The translations under genes and the position numbers were made by a program. DNA of 63,996 nt, filler included, from Kipferlia bialata (lineage: Eukaryota): NCBI GenBank assembly GCA_003568945.1. It is 3 parts of 3 records of this genome, joined end to end, with 100 filler letters (N's around TTAATTAATTAA, not from the genome) between each part and the next. Parts side by side here need not be neighbours in the genome. Positions count along the whole stretch, not along the records: positions 1 to 21,645 come from BDIP01000319.1; positions 21,746 to 43,319 come from BDIP01000322.1; positions 43,420 to 63,996 come from BDIP01000369.1. One strand, written 5' to 3'. This document shows positions 5,401 to 63,928 of the stretch, piece after piece (within the stretch, counting starts at the first letter, position 1; every line of letters starts with the position of its first letter). The notes under the pieces are model-generated. The model did no database searches, was not told where the DNA came from, and was given only the letters and a program-made list of their open reading frames with translations.

Positions 5401-8400
5401 ACTTCCATGCACCACTGTGCTACTCTCTCTAGGGTATGCACACACTCGGCACCCAGTCGCCTCCCACTACTTCCGCTAGGCTGTCTTGTGCTATCACTGT
5501 ACACAGTAGATGATGTAGAGGAGTCTACCCTACTGACCATTCCACTCCCACCATCTCTCTCTCTATCCCCGAGGGGAGATGCATATGGTACAGGCATGAG
5601 GGGGGGTAGGGCACGATCAACACCAGCATGGGAGGGAGGGTCATGTCTCTCCCTCTCACCACTCAGCCCATCTCTGCTGTCTCCATGTACCCTATGTGTA
5701 CTGGGTACAGATGCAGCCAGACCATGCTCGGGACCCTGGGCCTTGCCTGGTGGTAAGAACTCTAAACAAGTAGAATGTATGACTGCTGCAGTACAATACA
5801 CTAATAGTGTTTTGAATACCTGACGCCGATGCAACTGATGCCCCACTGTACCCTTCCACCCCCTCTGCATCTAGCGGTGATATAGGAGAGGTGAAGGAGG
5901 CAGCAAAGCCCCCACTCGATATTTCACTGGATAGGGGTACACTACCAGATACACCACTGGTGGAGAGAGATGTGTCCAGCTTAGTAGTGGGTCTCTCTAC
6001 CCCATGTACTGTGATGGATAGGGGGAGAGACACAGGGGAGTGGTCTGGTCTGGGGGTATCCTCTGCTATACCCTCACTCATGGTACTCTGGATACTGTCG
6101 ACAGGACTCCCTAGCAGCGTGAACCCAGGTGACATGCCCTGAGTGGTACACTCTGACACACCTGGGGTGGACACACTCTCCCCCTCACTCTCCCCCTCAC
6201 TCTCTCCCTCACTCTCCTCAGTGTCAGTCAGGGGGTCGTGTAGAACAGGCACCAGGGATCCATGACTACCTGACATAGCAACACTGTCTACAGTGTGCCT
6301 GGTGTCACCACTAGTGGCACTACTGCTGGGTTGGGGCACTTCACTCTCCAGGTACCCAGTGTCGGCCACTGGTTCACTCCCGTCTCCCTCCCCACCATCT
6401 CTCCCTCTCTCTATGTCTCCCTCTTCCTCAGTGTCTATTCCACTATCCTTGGTATGTACCACAGGGGCAGAGGACGGGGCAGCATCACGGCCACTCAGCC
6501 TGAAGGGGTAAGGTATGCACCAGCAACATACTGTATCCTATATGTCAAGTAGTATAATCTCGTACCTATCCACTATACCCCGTGTTGCTCTCTTCAGTCT
6601 CAGGGACTCTCGGATGTGACCTATGAGTTGGGGGTAAAAAGGAGGACAACAGCTGACAACATATACCTGTTACTCACATCGTTATGCCATTCTCGATATA
6701 TATCAAGCGCTATAGACATATCCAATTCACCTAGCAGCTCCGGCCTATGCCTGGTGTGCACGTTGGTCCCAGTGTCACTCTCATATGGGTGTCTGATGAA
6801 GTTGAGTCTCGCATTCCTGGGGGTCAGACTCCTCACAATCCACTTCTCTCGCTATACACCTACCAAATGACTCCCCCACCTGTATCTCTGCACCCATACC
6901 CATGCCCTCTGTCTGGCTTTACACCAAATTACGTCACATGCAGTTTACTATATATACTCGTGTATAGCTATACTATGTATACTGCCCACCTGTATCTCTG
7001 CACCCCCACCCCCGCCCTCTGCCTGGCTATGTCGATGGTGGACTCAACCCTGGGGACAGACCGGAGGAGCATGCCTAGGAGTCAGGATGTATATAGGCAT
7101 ATACATATATAATTCGATACTTTGGGCACAGACCGGAGGAGCATGCCTAGAGGGTTTGTCTGTATATATATACACGTATATGGTTGTCATAAGCAAATAC
7201 TAGCACGCTACCTCTACATGTGACTGGCAGTGACACTGCTGTCAGCCATGCCATGTCCTGCCACTGCACACACCTGGGGGGAGGGGAATAGAGAGATATA
7301 CATGACTATATATATATATACATGACTATATATATACTAGACTATATATATACATGACTATATATATATATATGTCATGCCATGTCCTGCCACTGCACAG
7401 ACCTGGGGTGAGGGGTATAGACATACACATATACAGATGTAAATATATACAACTACACTATATATACATGACTATATATATATGTCATGCCATGTCCTGC
7501 CACTGCACAGACCTGGGGGGGAAGGGTATAAATACTAGAATACACGTATGCAGGTATACACAGTATATAATATATAGTATATATAGTATACATTACACCC
7601 ACCTCCCCTCCCCTCCAGGCCATGTCTCCCCTATGGATGCACTCCCTGTGCCAGAGTGCTGCCCTATCGATGCCCTCCCAGCCACCACAACCTGCTTGGC
7701 CCTCTTGGCCAGAATGCGCTGGGCACGCGGGATCTGGGGGTGAGGGTTTCTATATATAGGGGTGAAATGTGTATACACGGATGCATTTGTGCCTCAATGC
7801 ACCCACGTTCTCCCTACCTGCCCCACGTTGAGGTCCTCGTCTGCACCTAGATACTGCACACAAGCCTGGGGTCAGGTGTGGACAGAGGATAAGAAGAGTC
7901 TGTAACCATGTCACAAGGGACACCATACATCAGACCCCACCTTGAGCACCGCTCTGTCCACCTCTCTCAGCAATAATTGCATATACAACCATGTTAATGT
8001 CTATATAGTATAGCTCTGTCTTTCTCGTTGATCGTTCTGTACATTACCTTGAGCACCGCCCTGTCTACCTCTCTCTCCTCCCTTTGGGACCTGACCTGAG
8101 GGTAAGGGAGTGTATACTGAACATCACTATACCCATATCCACTATACACTCCATATATCACCCATCCCTCACCCGTGTGCCGTCTGTGTGTGTGGGAGCA
8201 AGGACAGTGAAGTCCTGCTTGACAGTCCTGGAAAGGTCAGTGTACATACAAGTATACTTCAAGAATCAGGGTAAGACAGGATATTGAAATGTCCTTCCCT
8301 GTACCTAGTGTGTCTCTGCCTCTGCCGCTCCCTCCCTCTGTCTGAGGCCTGGGGTCAGGTGGTAGACAGATACGTATACTAGTTGTCCTGATTAGATACA

Positions 8401-9210
8401 TACACAAGTATCCTCGTAGAGTGGACACACACCTGGATCAAGTGTTCGAACTCATGTCGTTTGACTCGATCACCCCCAGCCTTGATGCTCTGGGGGTAAG
8501 GGTAGTACGAGTGCATGGGTCTTACTAACCACAACAATGCAGTCTTACAACCAGTGTCGGTATGGGAACCTGCAGAGAAACTGACACTCATATCTAGCTG
8601 AAACCCAAACCTTCTCATCTCCACATGCATATACTGGCATCCCTATGCTGGAGGGCAGGGCGGCTGATGTCTGCATGTCCAGGCGCTCGGCACTCTTGAT
8701 CAGGACTGGGAGGTCAGATAGATGCTCTAGAGAGGATTCCAGTGGGTTCACATACATACGAGGTCAGACATGGTGGATAGTGAACAACCATTTCGCAATG
8801 TGTATAGATGAGACCCCACTCAGTTATGTCACTTAGGTAATTATGTAATGATACATACATATATATGGGGGATAAGTACTCTCACCCAGTGACTCTGTGG
8901 CCCCACTCTGCATGGCTAGACCTATTCTCTACGTACACATATATATACATATATGGATGCATACTGTATCTACTATGACTGTCTATGGTCTCACCCAGTG
9001 ACATTGTTGCCCCACTCTGCATGGGCTCAGAGTCCACAGCGATGATGGGGTATCTGGGGGGGGTGAGGTAACAATAAACATATGAATGTAACAATAGACA
9101 CATGAAAGTATAGATGTATATTACACCACCACTAGGTATTCATGTATGTATATATATATACTATATATACCTGTCCTGCACCAGATGCACCCAGCCATAC
9201 ATACATGTAC

Positions 9211-9241
<31 letters not shown>

Positions 9242-12200
9242 GATATATATATATATATGATTCCTATCCATACATGTCCTGCACGAGATGCACCCAGCCA
9301 TTGATACCCCTAAATGTACATATACATACGAGAAGAGGCTAGAAATGAATACCCACACTAATATAGATACCTATGTCAATCCATATATATATATGTATAT
9401 ACCTGTCCTGCACCAGATGCACCCAGCTGGCCGTGTTGTCACTGTGCCCACCATCGGTCAGGAATAGGGCGGGGAGGCGCTTCAGCCACTTGTCCAGCTC
9501 GGGTCTAAGGTCAGGCCGGGGAATAGGCCAACACTACACTCCATATACACTATAGAGACTATGTACCTAGTCCTTGGGGCCCCTGCACTGAGAGCAAATG
9601 ATACAGTGAGGGACCGGCCTAGCACCATCTGTGGAGTCAGGAAGTACTCGTAGTAGGCATCATTGCAATACAAGTGTGATGTGGTGAATATGTATGTATA
9701 TGCATACCTTCCATCTGGTTGGGGCTGGCAGGCACACAAGCACAAAGATGGCTGGGGTGGGTGTCATAGGATGAGGACACAAAGGTCATAGAATGAGAGG
9801 ATATATATTGTACATGATATATACGTATATATATGTATATGTATACACCCCCACGTACTGACCACCAGGCACAGTATGTTAGTGACTATGGCCAGGCTGA
9901 AGGCCTCATCATAGTCAAACCCATCGATGGCCCTGGGGTTGGATACATATCTCCATTTGAATAGAGTATACATATATATATATTATCACATGCACTATGG
10001 CTAAAAGCAGCTTCTTCGTAGTCAACCCCATCGATGGCCCTGGGTGTAAGGTATGAGGCAGAGCGGTATGCATACAACTGTACCCAGCAGGGGCATACGA
10101 AGGATGTAGGAGTTAACATGGAGGGTACACAGACATGACATTATGATAGTGCACTCTCTCTCCATCACTACCTGTCTGCAGAGTACTCTGCCAACCGACA
10201 ACATACAGAGTACCATCACCCCACATGTGTGCAGTATATGTATTCGTACTATGCCCCCACCTGTATGCAAAGTACTCTGCCACAAAGAAGCCTGCGGCCA
10301 GGACAGAGAACAGGATGTCAAAGGCAAAGAGAGAGAAGCGGTGGCTGGGGGTAGACAGGGAGAGGGAGAGGATTGAGCTACAACTCAATATATAGGAAGT
10401 CAACGTGAATGGCGGGGGAGTGGGTATGGCTTATACCTAGGCTCCAGCACCCATGGACAGTACATATATATATAGAGTATGAAGTATATATGGTACTATA
10501 TGTGATACATGGCATGTATGCTATATGTTGTATACCTAGGCTCCAGCACCCATGCCCCCATGGAGAGTGCTAGGAACTGGATCAAGGTGCCAATGCCACC
10601 TAGCAGACCTGGGGCATAAGAATCAACATCACGACTTGTTCCATATATCTTGTACATCAGAGAAGGTTACATTGTCACCCCACAGGAACACTACTGCTGT
10701 TACACATAACGATAATATAACAGACTATAAGTGTCTCATACCCTGCAGTCTGTCCATGTTGTGTGCCACTGGCACCCTACAAATTGTGTAACACTCTTGT
10801 GTATAGACACATTGCATATAGTATATACATCCACTATATCATACCCTGCAGTCTCCCCATGTTGTGTGCAAGGGCTACCAAGTGACACACTATAAATTAT
10901 GCAACGTTCTACCACATAGCCACATTGTATATGAATATCCATCCACTATGTCTTACCCTGCAGTCTCCCCATGTTGTGTGCCAGTGCCGCCCCACTGACT
11001 GCCACAGCAGTGATGAGCTGGATGTCCTTGAGCCACTCAATGGTGACCTGGGCATAAACAGAATATCTCTATATAAACAGAGTATCTCTTATACACCATA
11101 ATGAACAGAGTCACTCTGGGGGAGGACAGAGGAAACGTGATTCTAAATGTATTGTGTGCTATGACACTGCCACCCCCACCTCTGGTATGGTCCCAGCTGG
11201 CGGTTCCAGTTCATCTGGTCTGAACCAGTACATCTTGCCACCAGACGATGTTAACACAAGCATGGACCTGGGGGGTGAGGTATACAGGGTGAGATGGTTC
11301 AACTATAGTCTGATAGTGTCTACCCGAGAATGTCCTCTGCCAGAAATGCCAGAGCTAGTAATATATGTGACAGTATCTACCAGCGTACAGAATGACACAC
11401 GAAGACCATGAGTAGTAGCCTCTACCTGAGGCTGTCCTCTGCTAGGTATGCCAGGTGGCACAATGATAGAGTATGTAGAATGTATAGGATATACTTAATA
11501 TGGTGTATGACAGTATACACCTGAGGCTGTCCTCTGCGAGATATGCCAGGTGGCACACAATGTTATACCGGTCAGAGACATCGCTGGGGGGTCAGGGCAC
11601 ACTATATATACAAATCAAAACACACACATATATATATATCATCTACCTCATCTGTCTGCTCTGGCTGTATGTAATCTCGTCCAGACTGGAGGTGGCGTCG
11701 TGGTAGAAGGACCGAAGAATGGCACCCCTGGGGTAAGGATGCATGGGGAATATGTATGTGCATATAGAGAGTTCCTATACACACACTCATACCCCACCTG
11801 AACAGTCTGTGTGCCCCGCTGTCCCTTATCATCTCCAGGAATGGCCACATGACTATGATACCCATGCAGGCCCAGTCAAGGCCTGGGGTAAGTAAGTCCA
11901 GTTGATAGGAGGTGAACGACACACGTATGCCAATAATACACTCACCAGGTGCCCAAATGAACGGGTCCAGCACTTCTATGTCCACATGACAAGGCATATA
12001 TATGTATATATATATAACCTTGATGTGTATGCATACACATATCGTCATACATACCTGGTGCCCAACTGAACGGGTCCAGCACTGCCCTGTCGACATAGTA
12101 GACCAGTCTGATGATAGCAACAGCCCCAAAGACTAGGACAGGGATGATGATGGACCAGTCTGGTGTTAGAGGCAGTGTATAGACACGAATATACACACAC

Positions 12201-14924
12201 ATACAATAATATATGGGTGTGTCAAAGACTAGGACAGGGATGATGATGGACCAGTCTGGGGGTGGGGTATGACATTAACCTATATATACATATGTATATA
12301 ATATTACATATATGCATAGTATATGTAAAAGTATGCCCCACCTGCCATGCTGAACAGCCTCAATAGAGTGATGCCCCCTAGGACTAGACAGCCCATGCCT
12401 ACCCAGATCAGGACCTGGGGTCAGACAGGAGATCACAAGGGTGGAAGACAAAGACTCACAGATATTACTATACAGGTGTTGTCATTATATACCCTCCACT
12501 CAGGTATCCCAGTGTCCAGCTGGGCCTACTCAAAGAATTCATAGCCAACATATATGGTAGCAGGGTATGGTACCAGCTATTGTAGTATATATGATCAGTA
12601 TCCACTTACATATCCGACTGTCTGCCCTGCTGTGCCTCCTCCAATACACATATATGTAGGCATATGGTACCGATTGGATATAACAAGTATAGTATATATA
12701 GATGCACTCACGTATCCGACTGTCTGCCCCGCTGTGCCTGGCCCACTGACCCACACCCATCGGAAGGCATACTGGGGGTGAGGGGTAGGACAAAGCGTAA
12801 TGGTCAGAGTGAGGTCATTGTCAAGTATATTTAGTGACACTCGGAATCCTAGACACCACTCACGAATGTTGTGATGAGGAGTGTGGACAGGCTGACCACC
12901 AGGAGCATCTGGGTCAGGGTCCTGGGGGGTGAGGCATAGTATGACATGTATATATATATATATAGCTTGACATTAAGTAATAGGATACAGTGCATCTGGG
13001 TCAGGGTCCTGGGGTTAGAGCACTGCGTGAAAATGAAATAGAGCTAGACACTAAGAAAAAGCATACCGTACCTGTACACATTGGAGAGTCGCCATGACCT
13101 CAGCCAGAACCTAGCTGTGCCCAGCCAGGTGGCCATGACGCCATAGACCAGGATGGAGGCTATGCAGACTGTTGTTAGATATACATACATATATATATAT
13201 ATAGATATAGACATAGATATTGGATATGGCCATGACGCAATAGACTAGGATGGAGGCTAGACAGCCTTGAGGAGTCAGACGACAGTGATCTAGGGTATAC
13301 ATAATGGAAAGGTTTGAGATAGAAAGCGACAGAGAGAGAGAGAGAGAGAGAGACGCAGGTGTGACGTACTGATTCCGAACACCATGAAGCCTGTGGATGC
13401 CGAGGCCACATCGATGGGTCTGAGGGGGTGAGACAGGGGAGAGAGGTAGATAAATATAGATATGTATATATATATAATGGGAGGGAGATTGAGAGATACT
13501 GGGGAAACATCAATGGGTCTGAAGGGGTAAGATAGGGATAGAGGAATGCACATAGAGAGAGAGGAGAGAAAGGCGGGTAAAAGAGTAATACAACCCTCCA
13601 CGTGAAGAGAGAGAGAGAGAAAACGAGAGGGAGAGGGAGAGAGATAATGTACCACACCTGAGGTCCAGCCAGTCGAAGAGTATCATGACGAGGAGGCCTG
13701 AGAAGACATAGGAGACGGCGAAGACAAGGATGAGGAGAAGGGCAACTGGGGTGAGGGGGGCAGAGACAATGATTTGCATTTCGACAATATATACTAGACA
13801 TTGGCTCAGTACACTCGCAACACTCACCCAGTAGACTGAAACAGAATGTGCAACTTGTAAATAGATAATAGATACTTGGTATATATGCTTGATATATAGG
13901 GGTATATACAATATACACCCACCCAGCAGACTGAACCAGAATGTTGCCCACCAGAACCTGGGCCAGGTGCCAAAGGTGTAGTTGGGGTTGGACAGGAACC
14001 TGGGGGGTAGGAGGGGAGTAGAGAATATATTCAGTACCTTGCCATCAATAAAGGAGAAGAGAAACACAGATACTCTCCCACTCAGATATATCACAACTGC
14101 CCACTTCTTGACCCTGTCATACTTTCTCTATATCTGACTCACAGTATAAACATACAGTAATACTAGAAGATATAGACATATAGATACATGTATACATATA
14201 CCTGTTGATGACCCTGTCATACTCCCTCTCGATCTCTGGCTCTCCATCCACAGGGGGAGGGTACACTCCCTGGCCCTGCATATCTGGGACAGACCCATCT
14301 CTCTCTGCTGAGGCAACATCACCCTCCCCTACCCCTTCGCCTCTGACACCACTATCTGATGCTTGTAGAGACTGTAGTGACTCTCCCTCTCTCTCCCCCT
14401 CACCTGCGCTTGATACATTAGACATACTAGAGGGTAGGAGTGATGTGAAGGAGGAGGTGGCCTCGTCATACACCCTGGACTGGACACCGGCCCTGAGGTG
14501 AGAGGTATATATACTATATACATATACATATTAATGGACTGCATACCATCCCTGGGGTGAGGGGAGACACATTCAATTACATATATGGATCAACATGTAT
14601 ATGAATACACTATCCCTGACCTGACCACTGTATGGGTGTGTCTGGCAGCAGAGTCAAACACAGCACCTGGGGGTGAGAGACTGTATTTACATACATACAC
14701 ATAACAGGGAGAGGGGGGAGGGAAGCACAGAGATACACATAGAGAAAGAGAGACCGTACCTGCGAAGAACCCCCCTCCTGAGACCGATGACACATTCCTG
14801 ACACGCATGCTGTCCCACACAGTGTTGGGGGTGTCTGTCTCTCCCTCTGTCTCCCCCTCCCTCTCTCCTTCTCCCTCTCCATCCCTGAGCATCTCTCTGA
14901 CATCTGCCATGGTGGATAGCACAC
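2405..14924 (-). CDS. Multi-transmembrane patatin/cPLA2-superfamily (lysophospholipase-like) protein, roughly 40 exons, 5' end missing
   Basis: Spliced motifs occur in order: GVLSTM (14924), NVSSVSGGGFFAG nucleophile elbow (14760-14797), many hydrophobic exons (9.7-14.0 kb), LFLTDGGHSDNT (9432-9467), PIIAVD, long S/E/G-rich insert (5.1-6.5 kb), GLLWFWLVPRM, VPNINTGNQFFSPEAGRAFRLCG (4.2-4.45 kb), stop at 2405. Exon phases were checked by hand from ~7.0 kb to the stop. Confidence 0.75.
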
Positions 14925-21827: not shown

Positions 21828-22183
21828 GTCAATCGCATTGCTGCGCAGCGTGAGGCTGAGAGGCAGGAGTTTGTGGACGCCAAGAAGTCCCAGCAGTGGC
21901 TTGCCAACAGTGAGAGCATGCGCACAGCCACCAGCATGATCAAGAGAGAGGTACAGTGTGTATATATATATTATGAGAGTTGGTAGCTATAACGCACACA
22001 CTTTGTCTCGCTCCGTCTTCTCAGTATATACACTCACTATCTAGGAGGCTGATGCCCTCCAGACATAATCTCTCTCTCTCTCTCTCTCTCTCCCCTCTCT
22101 CTCTCTCTCTCTGTCTCTATATGTATATATATGTAATGTTCCCTTTATACACTCACTGTGCAGGAGGCCGATGCCATCCAGAC

Positions 22184-22235
<52 letters not shown>

Positions 22236-22326
22236 AATATACTCACTGTGCAGGAGGCCGATGCCATCCAGACCTTCCAGAAGGCACATAAGCAGAGGCA
22301 GAGGATGCAGGTGGGTGCATGTATAG

Positions 22327-22362
<36 letters not shown>

Positions 22363-23050: not shown

Positions 23051-23094
<44 letters not shown>

Positions 23095-23347: not shown

Positions 23348-23399
<52 letters not shown>

Positions 23400-24349: not shown

Positions 24350-24389
<40 letters not shown>

Positions 24390-25066: not shown

Positions 25067-25104
<38 letters not shown>

Positions 25105-44269: not shown

Positions 44270-44305
<36 letters not shown>

Positions 44306-45197: not shown

Positions 45198-45228
<31 letters not shown>

Positions 45229-48200: not shown

Positions 48201-48492
48201 TCACCGTGTATGCACACACACTCATTATACATATATATATAAATATGTGCATATATGTGCATACCTCCCTCTGCCTCCCCTGTCACTGTGTATGCACATG
48301 ACCCAGTGGCATCAGGAACAGGGACAAAGCTAGACAGTCCTTGGCATTAGATAGAGAGATGGAGAGAAGGAAAGAGAGAGAGACCCATCGGCATCATAGC
48401 TGGGGACGAAGGCGAGACCTTTTGTAACAAATATAGGTAGGTATATACACTATAAACACTAATCCTGTCTGTCATGTCGTGACTGATTGTCC

Positions 48493-48527
<35 letters not shown>

Positions 48528-48992
48528 CTTAACATACCAGTGACAGAGTCCTTGACGTATATCCTGTCAGTCATGTCATGACTGTCTCTCTCTGTCTCTC
48601 TCTCTCTATATATATACTTAACATACCTGCTGTAGAGTCTTTGACGTATATCCTGTCAGTCATGTCATGACTGTACGTGTCTCTCTCTCTATATATATAT
48701 AAATACTAATATATATAGTAAATACTATGCATACCTGTAGTAGAGTCCTTGACATATATCCTGTCAGTCATGTCATGGCTGTATGTGTCTGTGGCTGTGC
48801 CTCCATCGGTGCCAGTGGTGTGGGTGACATCCAAGTCAGAAAGAACCAAGAAGTAAGCGCCTAAAGTGAGAAGAGAAATTGATATGTTAATCTATATAGA
48901 TATAGATATGTGCCAGGGGTGTGGGTGACAGAGAGGGAGGGTAGCACCAAGTCCAAGAAGTATGCTCCTGGGACAAGACACGTATATATGTC

Positions 48993-49030
<38 letters not shown>

Positions 49031-51938
49031 AATGTGCTAACAACAGAGAACCATATACAGGAAAGAATGTACCTTCACTGCCACTCGTGCAGAATAACCA
49101 CATATATATACATACTATATATACACATACCTTCACTACCACATGTGTCTGTGTCACTGTCGACAGTGGATGCCACAGCGGCATAGCAGATGGAGGTGGA
49201 GGCCTAATACATAAGTAATAGAGAGAGAGAGAGATAGAGAGACACAGCGGCATAGCAGATGGAGGTGGAGGCCTAGAGAGAGAGAGAGATAGAGAGACAC
49301 AGCGGCATAGCAGATGGAGGTGGAGGCCTAATACATAAGGGGTGAAGAGAGAGAGAGAGAGAGAGAGAGACATCTGCATAGCAGATGGAGGTAGATAGTC
49401 AAAAACAATTTGAGACAGAGACCCTACAGTCTTCATACCTCCTTGGCCCTACCAATGTGCTCCAGTCAGACATGTAGCACCATCATTATACACACACATA
49501 TGTGTGTTTCCATATATATATATATATATATATATACCTCGTTGACACTGCCAATGTGCTCCAGATAGACCCCACAGGTGAGGGAGTCCACAGCCCTGCC
49601 ACCACCAGAGCCTAGGGTCAGTATCTAAACAATAATGATACATATGTGTATGTGTGTGTGTGTAATAAGGTATGCCATTGAGTGTATACTACATGTCCTC
49701 TGGCCTACACCACCTACCCTAGGGTGGGAAAGAGGAACACACATTATTGACCATACACTTCATGATAATACTTCTTACGATCTCTTGACATGCATTACGG
49801 TAAACGTATATATACTCTCTGTATTACCTAGGGTTATTGAGATGTAGACCACACACCCCACCAGTACCTCCATCCCCTCCCCTGCTGACAGGGAGACACC
49901 CACACACATATATATACATATATATAGCTAGATAGTACCTACAGATGTCCCGTAGATAACTCCTCTCACTAACACCTCCACCCCCTCCCCTGCTGATAGG
50001 GACACAGAGGGGGCAGGGGGGGAGAGAGAGGCGGGGACAGCCGTCGCATAGCCTGAGGTAAGCCTAATCGAAAAGAGTATATACATATGTATATGTGGAA
50101 ATATATAGAGAGAGAGACAGAGTGACACAGAGGGGGCAGAGAGAGAGAGACGGCGACGGAAGTGGCAAAACCTGACATTAGTATAGTATAATATAGCATA
50201 TTCATACAAGAACCTGTTGTACGCACACATATATATATACCTACAGTGGCCACTTCGTTGTCTGGGTATCTGTCTGGTGTAGCTGATGATCCTATTGTGA
50301 TGTGGGATGACACAACACCAGAGTGGGAGTACAGGGGGATGTCACTAGGCACGGGTATGGTCAGTCTAGTTATTAGATATATATAGAGAGAGAGAGATGT
50401 ATATATATATATATAGATAGAGAGAGTGGGAGTACAGGGGGATGTCAGAGGGGACGGGGATGATCAGTCTAATGGTAAGAGATAGAGAGAAAGAGTGCCA
50501 GTACCTGTGTATGTTGGAGTGTCAGAGATACTGAGCACAATAGTTGGTATGTGGATGTATTGGTATAAGAGACCTTACAGTGTATACATGGAAATATACA
50601 TGGAGTATATATATATGGTATAATGAGCACAAATACGACTCATACCTTGTGTAATCTGTTCCGCCTCTACTACATGTCATGTCTGCCTCCTCTGTACTGG
50701 TGGCTGATGCTATGTACACTATACATATAGTATATATAAGATATATATAATAGTATTTACCTTGTGTATAACACTCCGTCTCTACTACACTGTATATCGG
50801 CCTCCTCTGTACTGGTGGCTGATGCTACCCACTGGGTGGACTCGGTGTTGTCACCCCAGATGGCCTAAAGTCAGTAAGATATATATATATATATATATAT
50901 ATATGTATTAATATATAGAGAGAGAGAGAGAAAGAGAAAGACAGGGATAGTGCACTGTATATACACCGGTATACCAAATCGCCAAGTGGCCTTGTGGGAC
51001 AACAGAATATGTCATTCCTTACACAATGTAGGTAGAATATGTCATTCCTTACACACTATCTGATATACCTAGATATCTATATACACAGCATAACAGTATC
51101 TATAGTCTCTATAGTATATAAAGAATATATGTAGCTCCCACCTCGTCGTATGGGTTCTCTGCCGTGTACCACTGGACAGCGGTACCTAGAGGTTAGGGAA
51201 AGAGGGGAGTCAACTATATACACTTTATATACTAGATATACCACTAATATACACTGATGAAGACAGGAAAGAATGTACCACTGGACAGCGGTTCCTAGAG
51301 GTTAGGGAGAGGATGGGCAAAGGCATGTATAGATACAGATACTAACAATAGTGACTGGAACAGTTCCTCACCTGTAGGTATGCATCCACCAGGGTAGACA
51401 CATTGTATGTATTGTCATATATATAGATAATTACACACATGATCATATAATGATACTAACCTGTCAGGTCTGTGCATAGATACAGTCCGTCCCCGTCCAC
51501 CAGGGCAGGCATGGCCACAATCAGCATGGCAGTGGCACCCCTAATGGGTGAGAAGAGAAAAGACATGGATATGCGCAATCTAGATGTAACTATGATTCGT
51601 ATACGAATATGTATTTGAAGAGATACACAATATTCAAGGTGGCACCCGTAATGGTAAGAAGATAGGACATATCAATTAATGTATATATCCATATATGAAG
51701 ATAGAAAGAGTGTGTCATACCTATCATCCAGTCCTCCCCTTGTGCTCTCGTTGGGCTGGAAGAAGAGCCTGGGGTGAGAGAGATAGGTATACAATGATTC
51801 TATTCCTCTTTTATAACTATAAATACATATACATATATGTGTCTAGACCTCACTGTCTCTCCATGTGCCTCTCCCAATAGATTGGCACGGAGAGTATGCC
51901 TTCATAGATATATATACATGCACTATACTTACATACAT

Positions 51939-51973
<35 letters not shown>

Positions 51974-54900
51974 TACCTCATTGTCTCCCCCTGTGCCTCT
52001 CCCATGGTATTGACACACATAGGTCATATATACACTAGGCATATATACACTACATGTATACCTCATTGTCTCCCCCTGTGCCTCCCCCAGTGGGTTGGCA
52101 TGGAGGACAAGGTCGACGGTGGGGTCAGTCCCTATTATTAGAGAGACATATGTATATAGAAGGTATATAACAGAGAGAGAGAGAGAGAGAGAGAGATTGC
52201 ATGGAGGACAAGGTCAAAGGTGGGGTCGGTGCCTAGGGATAAGGGTATGATAGTATATACTATGAGAGAGAGAGAGAGATACAGATTGACATGGAGGACA
52301 AGGTCCAGGGACGTAGAGAATAGGGAACATTCGCAAGAGAGAGAGAGAGAGAGAATGAAGTCGATATCATCATTACCTTCCATGTACAATGTTGATGACA
52401 TGAAGGGTGATATCTCGTCATCGGGATCAGTCAGAAGCGTCTGAGCATAGAAGAGCGTTTCAGACGCCGCAGAGTCTTGGAAGAAGAGGCTCCGTATGGC
52501 AGTGTTCTGTTCTTCATTGCCTTGGATGAGAATAGAGAAGCATTACGACAATGCGTGACACTTATGCACAACCAGTAGGAAGTTTCCCCATCTGTTCACA
52601 CTGGGGTTTCAAATAAAATATACATGCCAAAAGATGGACCACTCTCCCCATCCCATCTAACCTGTAACATGGTGATCTCTCTCTCTCTCTCTCTCTCTCT
52701 CGGTATAAGTATATACACTATGTAGGTATACATACCGAATGAGGGACCAACACGTCCTATCCCGTCTGAGCTGTACCCAGCTGCACTCTCTGCCCTGACA
52801 GACACATGGAGGGAGAGACCATCAAGATCTATGTCTATCGGTTAGAACGAATGCATATATGCGTGTGATATATACTATGTTAATATATACTATCTAGTGT
52901 GAGTATTGTAGACAGTAGCGTAAATACCGTCTGGATATAGAGGGAGCGGCCAATGGACGAGGATATTTGTTTGCAGAGAGTATCCATATACATTTACATA
53001 CCGTTATGGAAGCACACTGAGTATGCCAAAGGTAGAGAGTCAGCTCTGTAGTTGGGGTGGGAACTGACAAGGGCCTGGTGGGTTAGATAGATGAGATACG
53101 GAAGACATATATACATATATACATAGAGAGAGAGTCAGCTCTGTAGTTTGGGTGGGAACTGGCAAGGGCCTAGTGAGTTAGACAGATAGGAGTTACACTA
53201 GATCCATACACACTAGTTCCATTCTAGATCCATACACAATGTAAATGGGAACAGGAATATGTATCTCCTAGGCACACTCATTATAGAGAGAATAGAGTAT
53301 TCAGAGTATACAAAGCTAGAGCCGATACCTCGCTCCTTGGCATTGCGACAGGAAAGAGTAACAACATATAGGGAATATATACACATGAATCCTACTACGT
53401 TTGCATAATCATTATACATACCTCGCACCTTGGCATTGCGACAGGAAAGAGTAACAACATATATTCAATATATACACATGAATCCTACTACGTTTGCATA
53501 ATCATTATACATACCTCGCTCCTTGGCACTGCGACAGGAATGACATCTGGGGCCAGGATCCTAGGGTTAAGGTACGCATAGGAACACACACACGCATATA
53601 TATATATATGTATAAGAATATTAATTTAGAGACAGAGAGAGATACAGAGTAATGGTATGACATCTGGCGCCAGGATCCTAGGGGGTCAAATAAGGCATTT
53701 ACAACAAAATCAAATAGTGGCGGAAGTGCGGTAAGACTAACCATGTGGATATGGACGCATCAGCATGTGCTAGAAGTAGTAATATACACATGTACCTATA
53801 TACAGATACCTCTTTATGATCTGCCACTGGTATGACAGACTCTGAGGGCATACATAAACACACATACATAATATACATACGAAGATCTATATATATTTAC
53901 ATATACCAACCTGTAAATGGAAATCTCTTCGTCTGCCGCTGGTATGACAGACCCTGACACAATATATACATATAGACGGTGTACATACGTTGTATATATA
54001 TATATAATAGTGAATATATATACCTGTAAATAGATGCCTCTGTGTCATCTGCCGCTGGTATGACAGACCCTGACACTAGGCCATCATCCAAAAGGGAGAA
54101 GGACTCAGAGGTGTCAAACTGCAATAAGGGTGTAGAGAGAGAGAGAGAGAGAGAGAGAAGGACTCAGAGGTGTCAACCTACAATAAGGGTGTAGAGACAA
54201 AGAGAGAGAGACCTGTCAACACCTTTGTCTTGGACAGGTGTCTGTCCTCTGTGATATAATAGATATGATACACAATACATACCTATATAGATTACCATAC
54301 ATGTTAATGTATTTGACAGGATATATATATATTATGATATATATATACATACCTTAGTCTTGGACAGGTGTCTCTCCTCTGTGAGGGCAGGGGCAGAGGG
54401 GTCTGGATAGTTAGATGAGTTCTAATTAATAATGTATAGTATACATTTTGTAGATACGGGTTTATATGTATGTATATATATGTGTCTGTCCTCTGTCAAT
54501 GCAGGGGCAGAGGGGTCTGAAGAGTTAGAATAGACATAATTGTATATACACACACACAGTCATATACGTGTCGTAATAAATGTATGTGTGAATATGCCTG
54601 TCTCTGTGAGGGCAGGGGCCGAGGGGTCTGGATGTTAATGCATGTACAATGAATAAATATACACATATATCTCTAAATGTTTGTATATATATGTATGTAA
54701 CTATGAGGGCAGGGGCACAGGGGTCTGAAGGTAAGGTATCCACTCACTTATATATGTACATAATATGGTTGAGAACATACATGTATATGAGCATATGTAT
54801 ATATATGTGTCTCTGTGAGGGAAGGGGCAGAGGGTTCTGGGGAGTTAGACACATATACTGATATGAATATGTGTGTGGGTGTATGTAACAGTATATACAT

Positions 54901-55434
54901 ATGTAACTACCAGTATATACATGCGTTCGTGTATATATATGAGGGAATGTATATGTATGATATGTATGTGTGTTCCTACTCTGGACATACAGATGTTGAA
55001 TACCGTTATATACCTTGCAAATATATACTCTTGCCCTCATCAATACAAATATCCACTATACATAGCAATTATTATACAACATACCTACTAGTGTCATGTA
55101 TATGTTATATGCTGTCCTGTCCCTGGCATGTATCAACTCTCTCTCAATCACTACACACACATATATATACATAACTACTTACCTAGCAATGTCATATACA
55201 CATTGTAAGCTGTCCTGTCCCTAGCATTGTGGGCTGTGTTGAAGGAGACAGTGATACACCTGGGTATCAGGGGGTAAAAGGATACATATGCATATGCAAT
55301 TATTCAAATATTACAGAATGCACACATATATTGAGTATGGTATGGTAATGTTTCACTATATATACATATATACCTATCATCCGATGACTCTGTCTCATAC
55401 TCTGCCTCCTGGTCTGTGGATAGGGACCCATCCA

Positions 55435-55470
<36 letters not shown>

Positions 55471-55895
55471 CTATATACTATATATATACTACACTATACA
55501 TATTACCTATCGTCTGATGACTCCGTCTCATACTCTGCCTCCTGGTCTGTGGATAGGGACCCATCCACTATCTCTCTATTTCTCTATGTATATACTATAT
55601 ATATACACTACACTATATATATCTATCTACACCTATCATCTGATGACTCTGTCTCATACTCTGCCTCCTGGTCTGTGGATAAGGACCCATCCACTGTCCT
55701 GACACCACCAATCAGAGAGAGGGCACCACCTAAGTTAGCTATGAACATTGAAACATCCAACGCATCTATTGCAACAAAATAGAGTCTTGACACCCTCTAT
55801 AAAGAGACAAAGCGCCACCTAGAAATTACACTTAGGAAATATACATATATATATATATATATAGAATAGATACATCTATTTTGGCTATAGAATAG

Positions 55896-55928
<33 letters not shown>

Positions 55929-55972
55929 ATAGATATATAGAATATATATATAGAATAGATTTATATATAAAT

Positions 55973-56003
<31 letters not shown>

Positions 56004-57636
56004 CGTACTGTGGTCATCGACAACTGTCTCCGTGTCCTCCGACCTCTCCCCTGCACCCTTTTGCCAATCAAAGGCACCAATATCTCTGAGAATAAGGGTG
56101 TAGAGAGAGGGAGAGAGAGACAGTCAAAGGCACCAATATCTCTGAGAATAAGGGTCTAGAGGGAGAGAGAGAGAGAGAGAGACAGTCAAAGGCACTAATG
56201 CCCCTGAGAATAAGGGTGAGGGAGAGAGAGAGAGAGAGAGACAGTCAAAGGCACCAATGTCCCTGAAAATTAGGGGGTAGAGGGAGAGAGAGATGGACAG
56301 TCAAAGACACCAATGTCCCTGACGAATAAGGGTGTAGAGGGAGAGAAGATACAGTTACCTGGTATCTACCAGAGTGTCCGTCACCTGAAGTATATACATT
56401 GAGTAATATACAGAATTAACAATATACAGAAATAACAGAATTGTACAGAGAGAAGGACAATGGTGTGGTATACCTAGTCTCTGCTTCCTCTGCCTGTAGG
56501 GTGTTGGTGCATACATATCATCGTATATATACGTATACATAGTATACATATATTCAGATACATTACAACTATACCTAGTCTCTGCCCCCTCTGCCTCCAG
56601 GGTGTCAGTAGTATAAACATATAACATACATAGAGTATTGAGTACCGTATAGAGACTATAAAATGTATACAATATAAATATGAATGTATATACAATGTCA
56701 TACCTAGTCTCTGCCCCCTCTGCCTCCAGGGTGTCGGTGGGTCTCTCGGTATCCCTCGTGATCAGAGAAAGAGAGAGAGAGAGAGAGGTATCCCAAAGGC
56801 AACAAATACTGAGACAGAGATAGAAAGAGAGAGATTCTGTATATATACCTGAGTGGCTCCAGTGCGGCTGGGAGGAACACTGGTGTGTATACGATGTCAA
56901 TGCCCATGGAGGAGGCATAGTCATCTGGTGTTAGTATATAGTATTATATATATGTATATACTGTATACATTAATATATACATGTACACTGTAACATGTGT
57001 GTAGACTATGTCAATGTCCATGGAGGGGGCAGAGTCGTCTAGATGTGAGATATATATATATGTTCCACATCCGTATATACTGTGTACATGTATTGATATA
57101 TGTACTATAACTTGCGATAACAGAACCAGAGAGGGGGGGGGGGGTATCCTCACCTACGTCTTATACACATATATATACAAATTATCATATATACCTATAT
57201 CCACCACGTCACATGCCACGTTGTCCGTGTCTACTCCTATATATAGTACACTTTAGAGTAATATACAGTAATTACACTCTATATATACCATAAATATACT
57301 ATATACATCATATATACCTATGTCCACCACGTCACATGCCACGTTATCCATGACCATACATACGTAGTAAATATGCAATGTATATATCATACACGCTATG
57401 TCCATACTACATACCTATGTCCACGACGTCACATGCCACGTTGTCCGTGTCCTCATCGTCCAACAACTCATAGACTATGGGGTGACTAAAGGGTTAGATA
57501 CATATGAAAGGTATGAACTATCAGTATACACACACACCTTGCCAGCACTGACAGAGCATCTTCAAACACACTTGGGAACTGCTCAATGATAGGGATCTCC
57601 TCTCCATTGGAAGTAATGCTGGGGGTAAAAGGGCAT

Positions 57637-57671
<35 letters not shown>

Positions 57672-60600
57672 CACCTGCATGGCACGAAGTCTCTGACCAC
57701 CACCAGTGGGTAGACACGCACCCACACCCATATATAGTCATCATGAGATTGCAGGGAGGGAGATACACATATATATAATTATATACCTATGTATCATGCA
57801 TACCTGCAGGGTACAACGTCCCTGACCACCACCAGTGGGTAGAAGTGCTCCACAGTAATATTCTCATATACATACCATACACTGCATATATATCTATTTG
57901 ATATATATGTATATATATACATACCTGCAGGGTACAAAGTCCCTCACCACCACCAGTGGGTAGAAGTATAAATAGACACATACATATATATATATGTATA
58001 TAGTCATTAGGAGAGTGAAGAGAGAGGGGGAGAGAGAGAGATACCTGCATGGCACGAAGTCTCTGACCACTACCAGTGGGTAGAAGTGCTCGACAGTGCG
58101 TGTGGTCTCACCATCCTCCTCAGTCTCAGTCACCTTGACCCTAGGGGTAAGTGTATTACATATATAGTGGATATACACTATACATATACATATATATATA
58201 TATATACGGAGTGGTACTAAAGATGTAATCCTCCTCTGTCTCAGTCACCTTGACCCTAAGGGTAAGTCTATAACCAGTATATACATGTAATGAAACTAAA
58301 CATGTATATCACCCCTCTCCTCTGTCTCAGTCACATTGACCCTAGGGGTTAGAGGGACATACTATATAACTACACAGTATATAACCAGAGATACTGTATA
58401 CAACTGTTACTACTATATACACCGTTCATCCGTTCATTGTACGGTACCTAGGTACAGAGCCTCGTTGCAGCACAGCAGCCAGGTAGGAGTTGTGGTAGGT
58501 GCTAGGGGTGAGAGGGAGAATGAGGGTGAAAAGGTGTTGGAGTCACAAGTGGTAACAGAAGCGAGAGAGAGAGAAATCGACAGTTAAGCCAGGTAGGATT
58601 TAGTGGTAGGTGCTAGGGGTAAGACGGGGGGAGAGAGAGAGAACGGGGGGGTAGGAGGAAAGGATGTTTGGAAGAGTCGCATGGTGACAGAGGCGAGAGA
58701 GTGAGCAAAGGAGAGCTGAAGTCAAGGTACCGTATGTAACTATTCATTTACCTAGCCAAAGAGTTGTCTACGAAGTAGTAGTCCCCCCTGGATGCTGTGA
58801 AGTGCACATCTTCTCTCTCTCTCTATATATATAATACATCTTATATTCAATACGCAATATATATACTCTACCTTGCGAGGGAGTTATCTACGAAGTAGTA
58901 GTCCCCCCTGGATGCAGTGAAGTACCCACACTCTCTCTCAATATATATACAATACATCCTATACACTATACACTATATATACTGTACCTGGCTAACGCGT
59001 TGTCTACGAAGTAGTAATCTCCTCTAGATGCTGTGAAGTGCACACCCTCTATCAGGAACAGGTCAAGGGGGAGGGTCAGAGGGGACCATGTATACTGGAA
59101 AGGATAACCTATGGATTAGAGAGACGGGGGGGGGGGGTATAATGATATATGGGGGAAGAGAGAGAGAGAGAATATCAGGAACAGGTCAAGAGGCAGAGTC
59201 AGAGGGGACCATGTATACTGGAAGGGATAACCTGGTATAAGGGTGTAGAGAGAGAGAGAGAGAGAGAGAGAATATCAGGAACAGGTCAAGGGGGACCAGG
59301 TATACTGGAAGAGATAACCTATGGATTAGAGAGAGAAGTGGGGGGGGGGGCAGGGGTATCCTGATATGAGGGTGTAGAGGGGGAGAGAGAGAGAGGGAGA
59401 ATAATAGGAAGAGGTCAAGGGGGAGGGTCAGAGGGGACCATGTGTATTGGAAGGGGTATCCTGACATAAGGATGTGGAGGGGAGAAGTATAGAGAGAGAC
59501 TCTATCAGAAATATACATCATAGGAGGAACGGGGACACATGGACGAACCAATGTAAAACATAGAATATCGGTGTAAATTCTTTCATATACGTAATACTAA
59601 GTATACGTAATTCCAATGCTATAACAACATAATATCTATGTGTGTGTGAGTATATACACACCTACGTATGTCATGGATGTGTCGATGTTGAGGCCTATCA
59701 AGAGATCAGGGTACTGGTCTCTCAGGTAGGACACAGCTGACATTAAGTGTGTTGATAGAGAGAAAGAGAGAGAAACTCAATGATGTCAAATTCTTATAAG
59801 GAGACTAGAAGTACCACTACACATACCGTTGTAAACGTTCTCTGCCAGGTACCCATTCTCCCCATAGGCAGAGCCAACATCAACCTGAGAATAAGGGTGT
59901 AGAGAGAGAGAGAGAGAGAGAGAGAAAGGGTAAGTCAAAGTAATAGCAACATAATTGTGTTTATATTGTGAAAAGTACCAACGTGTTTTATCCCACCTGT
60001 AGCATAATACCCTCGTATCCCAGTTGTACCAGGACGTGTATATCAATTTGAAGAAGACAATTACAAACATAATTATATCTAACACTCTCTCTTACCTGCA
60101 GCATAATCCCCTCATAACCTAGGTCCACCAGTGTGTCTATGGAGTACTTCCTCTCCAGGGCCTCTGTGGATGTGGATGAAGTGTCTGTACTGCCATGACA
60201 TAGCACTTCTAACCAGTCTTCATGGTCTATAGGTTAGAAGAGAGAGTGATAGTATATATATATATATATATATGAATATATATGTGGTCTCTGTGGATGT
60301 GGATGATGTATCAGTACTTCCGTGACATAGCAAGTCTAGCCAATCATCATGATCTGAAAGTTAGAAGATAGAGTGATAGTATATATATATGTGGTCTCCG
60401 TGGATGTGGATGAGGTATCAGTACTACCATGGCATAGCACATCAAGCCAGTCTTCGTGGTCTATAGGTAAGGGGCATAGCATATTGTAAATATATATTCG
60501 GCTTTACAAATATTATGGGTATAGATGTATCAGTGCTGCCATGGCACAGCACGTCTAACCAATCATCATGATCTAGAACTAAGATAAATACTTGAGATAG

Positions 60601-63263
60601 TATATGTATTGGGACTATAGCAAGAGGTGGAAGTGATGCTATGACAAAGTACGTCAAGCCAATCTGCATGATCTATACGTCAGGGATACAGATGGCTAAT
60701 AGGAGATTAATAGTGCATCCTTTTGTATATTTGTATATAGTATGTTGCATATGTGTGTCGCATACTATATACCTAACCATAACACATCAAAGGAAGTCCA
60801 TACATATATACACACCTGGTACCACCGAGTACCCTCCCCACCCGTTGTGGAGCTGGGGCATGCCGGAGCCTACAGGGTGAGACATATGTAAGACATAGGG
60901 AGAGAGAGAGAGAGACAGAGAGAGAGAGCTGGGGCATGCCGGAGCCTAGACGGTGAGATAGATAAGCACATTACTTATATATCATACCATTAGACGTTAC
61001 ACAATACATGTATAAATACTAACTACAAAGAGAGAGGGAGGAAGAGAGAGAGAAAGACAGAGAGAGAGAGAAAGCTGCGGCATGCCGGAGCCAAGAGGGT
61101 GAGATATGTATACCACATAGAGAGTACAATGAAATTGAATAGAAGAAGTGATCAAAGTATTATAGTATACACAGTACCTGACTCATCGAGGTAGAACCCC
61201 GCTATGCACCCGATATATATATATCACATAGAGACAGAGAGAGAGAGAAGGTGAGGAGGAGAGATACACATATATATGTACATATATATATGTAGTACCT
61301 GACTCATCGAGGTAGAACCCTGCTATGCCTCCGTTGGATGCCTGCAGGGTGCCTGTGGCCTGGGGGTTAAGGGTATTAATGGCAATTAATACATGCATAT
61401 ATAGATAACAGTATATATATATAGTTACATATATATATCAAATATATGAATCTATGCCTGGAGGGTGCCTGTGGCCTGGGGGTAAGGGTACTATTGTAAC
61501 AATATATATATAAACATATATATAAACATATATCTAACTCACAGTATATTTATGTCTGGTGGGTGCCTGTGGCCTGGGGGTGTTAATAGCATATACATAA
61601 GCAAAATTGTGAATCACATATACGTATACAGTTCATGTATACTATATAACATGCACGTATTCATGGATATATGCAACCCTGATTGAATGACCGTGGCCCC
61701 AGTCCTATATACTATAGCATTGGATATATATATATTATTGATATATATATATATATACATATGAATACATATGCACACCTGATTGAATGTTTGTGGCCCC
61801 AGTCCTATATACTATAGCATTGGATATGTATACTATTATTGATATATTTATGAATATATATATATGTATGTATCCACACCTGATTGAATTACTGAGGTCC
61901 CAGCCCTATATACTATAGCATTGGATATATATATATATTATTGATACATTTATGAATATATATATATATATGTATGTATACCTGATTGAATGACTGTGGT
62001 CCCAGCCCGTCCCCTGTGATGGGGCCATATAAAACATAGTATTGGATAAATATATATTATTGATTCATATATATATATATATATATATACATATATATCC
62101 CTACCTGATTAAAGGACTGCGGCCCCAGCCCGTCCCCTGAGATGGGGGCATAGTCGTACAGACCGGCCTCCTTGTCCTAAGGGTAAGACAGGATATATAT
62201 ATATATATATATACATATATATATACTGTATACTCTATATATATAGTATATATACAAATATAAATACTGAATTGGTGCATAGTCGTACAGACCGGCCTGC
62301 TTGTCCTAAGGGTAAGGTGGGACGAACACTGATAGCATACGTCATAGATATGGATATAAAATGAAATGGTAGCATATACTTGTACCTCCCAAATGCACTC
62401 TGGCTGATCCTCATCAATATTGTATAGTATATAATATATAATACATAATATGTCTTCCTCAATATATATGTAGATATGGTGGAATACTCTTGTACCTGAC
62501 ATATGTACACCATGGCATATGCACTCTGACTGATCCTCATCTTGGAGATGGCCTCGAGGTGGTCGTCCTACCATGAGATGTATAGTATAGAACCAATATG
62601 CTATTGAAGAGAGAGAGAGAAAGAAGAAAGGTGCATTTTGTTGTTGATATAAGAGAAGTAATTGGAGATGGCCTCGAGGTGGTCGTCCTAACATGAGATA
62701 TAGGATATAGCAATATAGACACACATATATATATACATAATGTATATACTGTTGATATATAGGTACTGATATTGGAGTATTGGAGATGGCCTCGAGGTGG
62801 TCGTCCTACCATGAGATGTATAGTATAGAACATATATACTATTGAAGAGAGAGAGAGAAAGAAGAAAGGTATACATTGTTCTTGATATAAGAGAAGTATT
62901 GGAGATGGCCTCAAGGTGGTCGTCCTAGCATAAGGGTTTAGACACATATCTTAGAAAATTATATTTCATATTACTATATTACATATTACACTATATTGAT
63001 AGAATGGAAGTAATGAGATCCATGAATTGAATGACTATGGGTGTAATTACTACTATATACTATTATTCACTATGGAGCCCATACCTTGCTTGTCGGACCG
63101 AGGAATGGGTTGATGAAATATCGTATAATGTAAATATCTATATACATTGAAGAGTAAACAGAATATGTATATACTGAGCTAGTGAATATACCTTGCTTGT
63201 TGGTCCGAGGAACGGGTTGATGATCAGAATGGGGTGGTCCCAGACTGGTGGGTGAATAAAGGG

Positions 63264-63297
<34 letters not shown>

Positions 63298-63608
63298 AGG
63301 AATGGGGTGGTCCCAGACTGGAGGGTGAATAAAGGGTTCAGAGAGAGAGAGAGAGAGAGAGAGAGAATAGGGTGGTCCCAGACTGGAGGGTGAAAAAAGG
63401 ATGCAGGGAGAGAGAGACAGAGAGAGAGATTGCTTACGGGATAGTCATAGATTGTGTGAATGAAGGGTGTGGTAGAGATACATAACAAACAACATAATAT
63501 ATATATACCAGAAAAAACCAATATAATATATACCTGAGTATATGTTGGCAATGTCCCACGTGTGCATCAGAGTGGCCACGCCTGGGGGTAAAGAGAGATT
63601 AAGGGTGT

Positions 63609-63643
<35 letters not shown>

Positions 63644-63928
63644 AGCAGTAAGTGCTTCAGAGTGGCCACGCCTGGGGGTAAAAAGGGTGTAGCGGGAGAG
63701 AATATATAGAAACATGTGTAAAAAGGGTGTAGCGGGAGAGAGAAATGTATATGGAGTGTGTCAGTGAACAGAAAGAACGATAAGGTGAGGGTTTACATGT
63801 CACTACAAGGCTCTCTCTCTCTCTGTATTTCTCTCTATATATATAGAATACATATACAACATATATACCTGTCGTGACTGTGATCCTCTCTGGTGGGTCC
63901 ATGTACACTAGCCCACAGGACACAAGGC
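43420..63928 (-). CDS. Very large multi-exon extracellular-type protein (dozens of short exons); probably the N-terminal part of the 35-43 kb gene; start lies outside the window
   Basis: Continuous series of minus-strand exons with standard signals and beta-strand-like T/S/V/Y/D-rich peptides: GYPFQYTWSPLTLPLDLFLIEGVHFTASRGDYYFVDN, HFYPLVVVRDFVPC, LHVSVRAESAAGYSSDGIG, GALSLIGGVR, VVGTVQYAVDA. No terminal exon was seen before the linker, and not all phases were verified. Confidence 0.6.
58752..59461 (-). repeat. Half-exon echo stack around exon 58988-59108
   Basis: Two 3'-half copies (58752, 58872) and three or four 5'-half copies (59173-59461). Confidence 0.9.
59997..60672 (-). repeat. Half-exon echo stack around exon 60096-60226
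   Basis: Four 5'-half copies starting at 60353, 60460, 60572 and 60672, and one 3'-half copy ending at 59997. Confidence 0.9.

Follow-up and report, generated by a model that had tools for sequence, protein, structure and literature searches.

Stacks of half-exon copies in introns of Kipferlia bialata and their possible origin from diverged alleles

Tandem exon duplications and mutually exclusive exons comprise neighbouring exon-like copies with silent-biased divergence, and in one-sided invasion one end is resolved by homology and the other is joined without it. Internal gene duplication across an exon-intron junction has been named as a route of intron change (PMC9860276, PMC2891723). Here we describe half-exon echoes, i.e. 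partial copies of an exon that lie in its flanking introns and mostly keep one splice site, in a 64-kb stretch of DNA (the window) of the free-living protist Kipferlia bialata, to which all counts below are confined. These echoes are likely the dead, displaced halves of earlier exon versions. The K. bialata genome is reported to contain 124,912 introns and to have a diploid k-mer profile; in the main text of the genome paper, the strings 'exon' and 'duplicat' never occur (PMC5874029). No description of such echo stacks was found in the main texts of the freely available papers searched. Both components, tandem duplication over a splice junction and end joining of homologs, are of a known kind, and it is the scale that is surprising.

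The eukaryotic DNA of the window is dense in introns, which are about 50-130 nt long, rich in repeats and have their branch points near the acceptor. An automatic gene finder took many echoes for exons and was replaced by four curated open-frame models (A, A2, B and E), with 121 exons in all. These models and the joints between the contigs are:

43449..63928, minus strand: gene A, 1288 amino acids (aa) encoded by 48 curated exons that share a single open frame, 92 echoes; five exons are confirmed by a spliced contig
35093..43174, minus strand: gene part A2, 26 exons, 731 aa, 25 echoes
6566..14910, minus strand: gene B, first 34 exons, 22 echoes
21828..25424, plus strand: gene E, 13 exons, Glu/Arg-rich product, 11 echoes
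21646-21745 and 43320-43419, no strand: artificial linkers between contigs, each a six-frame stop word with an N run on either side

A codon-blind local alignment of each curated exon against its own flanking introns (score of at least 32) revealed 150 echoes beside 77 of the 121 exons, unevenly spread over the models, and not one had the wrong polarity. Non-adjacent introns scored 30 in 1.2% and 34 in 0.4% of 1387 trials, and about two false echoes are expected. Upstream of the exons, 65 echoes are anchored at the exon 5′ end, four are internal and none is at the 3′ end; downstream, 69 are anchored at the 3′ end, 10 are internal, two comprise the whole exon without its AG, and none is at the 5′ end only. 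The AG is retained in 62 of the 65 upstream 5′ halves and the GT in 65 of the 69 downstream 3′ halves, and no echo among the 150 bears both splice sites. A looser splice-anchored scan yielded 13 further, weaker echoes, again none with wrong polarity, and self-comparison of the window gave many direct repeats of 20-70 nt spaced 85-130 nt apart. Beyond the flanking introns, up to 1.5 kb away, there were 11 hits, all of them GA-rich low-complexity sequence and none an echo; one inverted hit was reported. Exon length does not predict echoes (median 75 vs 79.5, p 0.82). The half-exon pattern reported in an initial annotation of this DNA is therefore confirmed, with the splice sites mostly intact, and all eight stacks singled out there were recovered, with 2, 2, 2, 5, 4, 3, 4 and 3 echoes. 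Its description as 'window-wide' goes too far, as no echo turned up in two sets of genes modelled automatically, one with 22 exons at about 1-6600 and one with 23 exons, 17 being doubtful models, at 25500-34900. A zero count for the two kinase genes (28 exons) is invalid, since automatic models take echoes as exons and repeats were seen in these genes.

The individual stacks are:

61679..62305, minus strand: exon 62176-62105, preceded by a 5′ echo at 62305-62267 and followed by 3′ echoes at 62029-61982, 61906-61880 and 61705-61679 and a weak one near 61796
59997..60670, minus strand: exon 60226-60096 with four 5′ echoes (60670-60624, 60570-60515, 60460-60393, 60351-60286) and one 3′ echo (60043-59997)
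58752..59458, minus strand: exon 59108-58988 with three 5′ and two 3′ echoes, their ends nearly abutting at exon positions 55-59 and 56
57675..58341, minus strand: exon 58140-58045, flanked by two 5′ echoes and three 3′ echoes; the outermost of the latter is the most exon-like in sequence
54223..54834, minus strand: four 5′ echoes ahead of exon 54402-54353 and a single 3′ echo behind it
46694..47587, minus strand: intron of 735 nt that separates exons 47587-47509 and 46773-46694 and holds two 3′ and four 5′ echoes
46101..46573, minus strand: intron of 355 nt that holds a 3′ echo (46424-46395) and a 5′ echo (46278-46245); it is absent from the RNA joint, and a single unbranched DNA unitig extends over 46000-46779
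39849..40457, minus strand: exon 40457-40393 with five 3′ echoes, the most decayed being the outermost
9171..9504, minus strand: exon 9504-9403 with two 3′ echoes (9298-9275, 9195-9171)
7212..7512, minus strand: exon 7273-7212 with two 5′ echoes (7512-7486, 7402-7376)
23758..24295, plus strand: exon 23988-24108 with 5′ echoes at 23758-23782 and 23843-23867 and 3′ echoes at 24175-24196 and 24273-24295

Echo polarity is unremarkable in itself, as every direct duplication that spans a single splice site yields it. In this geometric polarity, and in being direct, adjacent, partial exon copies with one splice site, the echoes resemble a tandem duplication across a junction. Plain dead tandem duplicates would thus account for the polarity for free, and they would also show a silent excess because selection protects the working exon only. 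Since the exon then changes at silent sites only and the dead copy at all sites, a dead copy of a fully constrained exon has a ratio of non-degenerate to fourfold divergence of 0.5. The differences between echo and exon fall at codon positions 1, 2 and 3 in 130, 112 and 354 cases on 1772, 1780 and 1764 sites, respectively. In site tables based on echo cores that were cut back at their free end as far as six matches in a row, 127 of 3062 non-degenerate and 154 of 776 fourfold sites differ, a ratio of 0.185 (exon bootstrap 0.13-0.26) that becomes 0.19 once base composition is matched. Against the 127 non-degenerate differences observed, 327 would be expected at a ratio of 0.5 (binomial p 8e-40). 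Singletons and outermost echoes alone give 0.26 (0.19-0.35), and pairs of echoes compared with each other 0.18, and so the claim of the initial annotation that differences are mostly at third codon positions or conservative, also between copies, is borne out. A ratio of non-synonymous to synonymous divergence near 1, which it had named as the level speaking against its proposal, is too lax because a dead duplicate is expected near 0.5; the window data pass the stricter level. The cleanest class comprises sites at which only the middle of three consecutive copies differs, since in a plain duplication chain such differences must be mutations of a dead copy. Here, 11 of 1003 non-degenerate and 18 of 247 fourfold sites differ (ratio 0.15, p 5e-7), and leaving out the deepest stack does not change this. 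The uncorrected ratios per gene are 0.175 for A, 0.24 for A2, 0.14 for E and 0.47 for B. Plain dead duplicates therefore fit gene B but are rejected for A, A2 and E pooled, and as a general explanation they are highly improbable.

A further argument comes from the order of echoes within stacks. Non-degenerate divergence rises with rank outward from the exon (0.017, 0.037 and 0.056; trend p 0.0004), whereas fourfold divergence is flat (0.199, 0.199 and 0.23; p 0.65), contrary to what plain duplicates would show. At sites shared by the outermost and the innermost echo, there are 31 vs 10 replacement differences and 63 vs 56 degenerate ones; among 39 stacks, the outermost echo has more replacement differences in 13 and fewer in one. 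Eight echo differences create stops and 22 of the 150 echoes carry gaps. It becomes clear that the echoes are dead and that the oldest are outermost. The combination of rising non-degenerate and flat fourfold divergence implies that the silent divergence was present at birth and that the rest is decay; the echoes were thus likely born already diverged. The comparison of divergence with stack rank that the initial annotation had proposed supports both parts of its view that the copies came from already diverged functional versions and that the old halves were displaced outward. Triplet patterns at degenerate sites (XYY 42, XXY 47, XYX 35, XYZ 12) fit exchangeable alleles and not a copying chain, and the four deeply diverged 5′ echoes of exon 60226-60096 have variants in common that occur out of order. 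These patterns also bear on the idea that every new half arises as the resident half is resynthesised in an error-prone way, with selection keeping the silent errors. Although the fillers, i.e. the intron pieces that the echo ends adjoin, resemble slippage products and no second allele would be required, a copying chain makes XYX rare, and the substitution table holds no single-base error signature. We regard resynthesis as most improbable.

Near-perfect recent tandem copies of whole units occur on the minus strand at 53325-53543 (93-nt period) and 62542-62934 (238-nt two-unit period), which indicates that plain unequal exchange also enlarges stacks. Insertion of whole exons with symmetric nesting was considered as a rule and dropped: in 6 of 19 exons the ends of a 5′ and a 3′ half come within 5 nt of each other, compared with 3.0 expected (p 0.055), and such insertion is at most occasional.

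An assembly artefact in the form of collapsed haplotypes was also weighed; the unit size is like a short-read length and the window gaps adjoin repeats. Unitigs of DNA run X1 and a contig of run X2 were compared with the 2.1 kb at 46000-48100. Run X1 is perhaps from the window's own sample, in which case it tests the assembly and not the biology of other strains; run X2 is not on record as RNA and was treated as RNA by guess, its contig being spliced. Two unbranched X1 unitigs of 884 and 609 letters match 46000-46779 and 47008-47597 without a difference, the latter stretch covering part of the 735-nt intron and its upstream exon. They contain seven echoes with their exons, and their depth is even (409.5 and 406.3 vs 438 for the next piece). 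The stacks are not an assembly artefact where checked (46000-46779 and 47008-47597), and neither the ordered decay nor the shift in composition described below is like one; for the window at large we hold an artefact to be extremely improbable.

The X2 contig comprises five full exons of gene A with zero differences and skips all 10 echoes between them, the 735-nt intron being excised whole. Since contigs lose rare variants, it is compatible with minor use of echoes. This result bears on the possibility that coding constraint still acts on the echoes, whether they serve as donors in gene conversion, as alternative parts of exons or in recursive splicing. Such constraint would suit the innermost echoes of stacks, which have replacement differences at 15 of 870 sites and in which 10 of 17 changed codons are conservative, and it would suit the kept splice sites. 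It is at odds with the full exons of the contig, the outward decay, the stops and gaps and the absence of any frame preference among echoes (25/19/18 and 20/20/25), and we consider it very unlikely; the continuing constraint proposed in the initial annotation is not upheld. Its alternative of recursive or combinatorial splicing fares no better. Stwintrons and recursive splicing likewise place extra splice sites inside an intron (PMC7138796), but removal of an inner intron would rebuild no donor in 37 of the 42 exons with upstream echoes. Only 5 of these 42 begin with GT, compared with 23 of 121 overall, and 44 of 54 exons with downstream echoes end with AG, compared with 96 of 121. From mutually exclusive exons the echoes differ by their single splice site, by their decay with rank and by their absence from the RNA contig. 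Intact branch point-AG and GT sites at 60-130 nt from the used sites go unused. This points to exon definition (defined, together with the other splicing mode, in PMC3488318) in a species whose introns are short and whose spliceosome is reduced, with 87 of 174 proteins found (PMC6679479). Exon definition is therefore likely in K. bialata, as judged from the skipped sites.

Echo and filler together form a unit that extends from one splice site to the next. Its median length is 109 nt, with a 10-90% range of 84-128 nt (129 units from the 150 echoes; unanchored, N-containing and at least 170-nt ones were left out, which trims the upper tail), and longer echoes pair with shorter fillers (rho -0.37). 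Echoes and fillers make up 16,641 of the 30,531 intron bases in the four models, one filler including a 462-base gap. The central part of echo-bearing introns has an AT content of 0.60, the same as echo-free introns, whereas the fillers are AT-richer (0.67-0.72) and simpler. The flank beside echoed exons is likewise AT-richer and simpler, with 0.70 vs 0.63 on the acceptor side and 0.74 vs 0.65 on the donor side, while the intron flank of outermost echoes matches echo-free introns in composition (flank tests on 127 anchored echoes with intact sites). From this contrast it follows that the outermost echo holds the old intron end and that the piece beside the working exon is new. Echo ends adjoin unrelated filler: old end and new filler are alignable in 4 of 75 pairs, and among singletons with at most one difference 19 of 20 have an unalignable flank. 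Filler aligns with filler in 17 of 51 pairs. Above the consensus, old and new ends remain alike for about 30 nt from the acceptor and for 6 nt from the donor. The joint has no more simple-repeat runs than a position 20 nt within the filler (20 vs 29 of 134), and a greater likeness near the free end of the echo (72/303 vs 90/289, p 0.053) is not counted as shown.

Duplication within one allele would combine adjacency and polarity, both of which are found, with a copied flank and a ratio of at least 0.5, both kinds of divergence rising with age; the flank is copied in just those 4 of 75 pairs, and the ratio is 0.185 (0.47 in gene B). The Kipferlia copies thus differ from junction tandem duplications in being unfaithful at birth, with exon parts like other alleles and intron ends mostly unrelated, and also in their narrow size, in the occurrence of up to five events per exon side and in creating no new intron position. 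One could reconcile the two by assuming old same-allele tandem duplications across the splice site, whose exon parts, in the echo or in the working copy, were later refreshed from diverged alleles through gene conversion or ordinary recombination and whose fillers lost their likeness by slippage. This would account equally for the silent bias, the flat fourfold divergence, the exchangeable patterns and the shared end points; 13 of the 17 alignable filler pairs have a shared end point, and a few units, as at 53325-53543, are near-perfect tandem copies. However, the flanks of the 19 singletons are unalignable also where both flanks are non-repetitive, the filler composition is unlike that of old intron ends, and the splice dinucleotides are nearly all intact. 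We consider later refreshing unlikely, although it is the main rival; like the explanation that we favour, it has diverged alleles recombine.

A third view of the new intron ends comes from an acceptor sequence that recurs in the window:

37980..63732, minus strand: shared acceptor module, (CT)n then CTACACCCT[TC], found 15 times, in 8 different introns of A and A2 and in no other part of the window

In the form (CT)n-CTACACCCTT the module stands in 8 unrelated introns of one gene, several times ahead of exons or echoes that start with GTT. It suggests that intron ends are copied within a gene. Shared 12-mers revealed no donor-side family in the window introns, and a 20-base acceptor motif had no match in metagenome scans. 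Introners similarly have one intron-end sequence common to unrelated introns (PMC9860276), but the likeness seen here is confined to the 3′ end and to one window gene and involves no new intron positions. The module would agree with an RNA- or spliceosome-guided swap, in which another intron's end is set at the same exon junction, for example by reverse splicing into the transcript of another allele, and a short copy recombines on one side. Such a swap would also explain that likeness ends within 6 nt of the donor and that close acceptor pairs are commoner within genes (23/8563) than between them (2/7805). Since old and new acceptor ends share sequence above consensus to about 30 nt, and most fillers match no other window intron, we rate it as quite unlikely.

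On balance we incline to the explanation that exon ends were repeatedly replaced by pieces of diverged alleles, each entering through homology at one end and through an illegitimate joint at its other end. The process would begin with a break inside the exon, 20-70 nt from the splice site. The single broken end would pair with the exon of the other allele and copy via its splice site into about 70 nt of intron; only one end would find homology because allelic introns may be too unlike to pair. The copy, a piece of about 110 nt, would then be joined to the other broken end without homology. The exon would thereby be completed by the new half, and the old one would be displaced into the intron together with its splice site and intron end. 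Survivors would be found only where a working splice site and a tolerated protein result, and out-of-register exchange between unit-bearing alleles could enlarge the stacks. The spliceosome would likely pair the nearest acceptor and donor across the exon, leaving the half-exons to be ignored and to decay. Metamonads are described as lacking Ku-type end joining, and fornicates as lacking Rad51A while keeping two Dmc1 paralogs (PMC8516963); in mouse meiosis, ends are joined between homologs and tandem duplications result (10.1101/2020.06.23.168138). As in one-sided repair or end joining between homologs, one end would be homologous and the other not, and the product would be a tandem duplication with a haplotype switch. 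Those are rare events in assays or mutants, whereas Kipferlia would have fixed hundreds in a few genes, and its events would always rebuild a working exon, at about 110 nt. The interpretation in the initial annotation is supported as regards diverged functional versions and displaced halves.

Several observations weigh against replacement from diverged alleles. The divergence pattern fits an origin from a different haplotype, yet no second allele was found among the X1 pieces examined: no donor allele was seen, both long unitigs are without a variant, and the pieces listed at 90% likeness, beyond which there are 23 further ones, include no second exon version. Several window genes are echo-free, and gene B (26/415 vs 13/97, few sites) is close to the ordinary null of 0.5, which is not rejected for it. 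The narrow unit size is not predicted. Fillers that are allelic intron ends should sometimes align with the resident end, but almost none do, and some filler pairs align though their exon parts differ at 10 of 19 degenerate sites; the model thus does not account for the source of the fillers. Junction microhomology is weak, with a repeat pattern of at least 3 nt into the echo in 9% of 134 cases where 1.8% are expected. Finally, 116 of the 121 exons are based on our own reading of frames and splice signals, and the data comprise a single window of this size.

One may go further and propose that Kipferlia runs a standing, splice-junction-directed replacement, in which pieces of about 110 nt with another allele's exon end and a fresh intron end are recurrently written into exons. 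Intron ends would then turn over while introns stay, about half of the intron DNA of affected genes would be scar, and a stack would be a time-ordered archive of alleles. This extension appears doubtful to us.

As to the genes themselves, A2 probably continues gene A towards its 3′ end on another contig, giving a joint gene of about 2050 residues whose continuity across the linker is presumed. Coding lengths of 2925 and 2786 nt compare with 3010 and 2929 nt in the spliced X2 contig, the length of which fits A plus A2. The contig end at 43269-43319 (minus strand) consists of filler and a 3′ exon half with GT, and the contig break is thus inside an echo-bearing intron. The A2 product has kelch-like repeats by eye and PSI-like exons below the Pfam cut-off, and likely a membrane segment. 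Gene B likely encodes a multi-pass membrane protein and gene E a coiled coil. Five exons of gene A have unusual GAG or AAG acceptors (56754, 43508, 52520, 48339 and 47587, minus strand), the last being backed by the RNA contig. A 26-nt segment with AG and GT at 56384-56359 (minus strand), in a stack-bearing intron, is faintly like the upstream exon and would break the frame if spliced in.

Outside the curated count, the paralogous pair of kinase genes has echo pairs at 15357-15687 and 20737-20883 (both plus strand), each at the exon starting YHDHF. P0001, the single protein hit for a kinase stretch, is a Kipferlia bialata record; in its kinase gene the exon annotated at 16260-16298 (plus strand) stops before the DFG-like motif; an intronic copy at 16452-16542 (plus strand) continues through 'KLMDLG' to a GT, and a shorter copy lies at 16342-16376. 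Either the echo keeps a longer ancestral exon or the public model lacks a real exon. Metagenome scans for relatives of P0001 gave 29 pattern matches, 0 of them confirmed. An echo-free, intron-poor stretch contains an intronless 323-aa open reading frame without a Pfam family (30407-31390, minus strand), and a homolog search with 30410-31378 found no relative among 520 candidates. A gene with a TM2 domain (PF05154, E 5.5e-12) at 1514-1891 (minus strand) is echo-free as well.

For practical purposes, echoes mislead gene prediction, as the automatic model demonstrated, and their skipped splice sites are natural test substrates for exon definition. We know of no observation of sex in the group to which Kipferlia belongs. 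If replacement from diverged alleles is true, one genome would be a record of gene exchange in a group without observed sex. It would also be a major, apparently undescribed route of intron growth, in a species with a reported 124,912 introns (PMC5874029).

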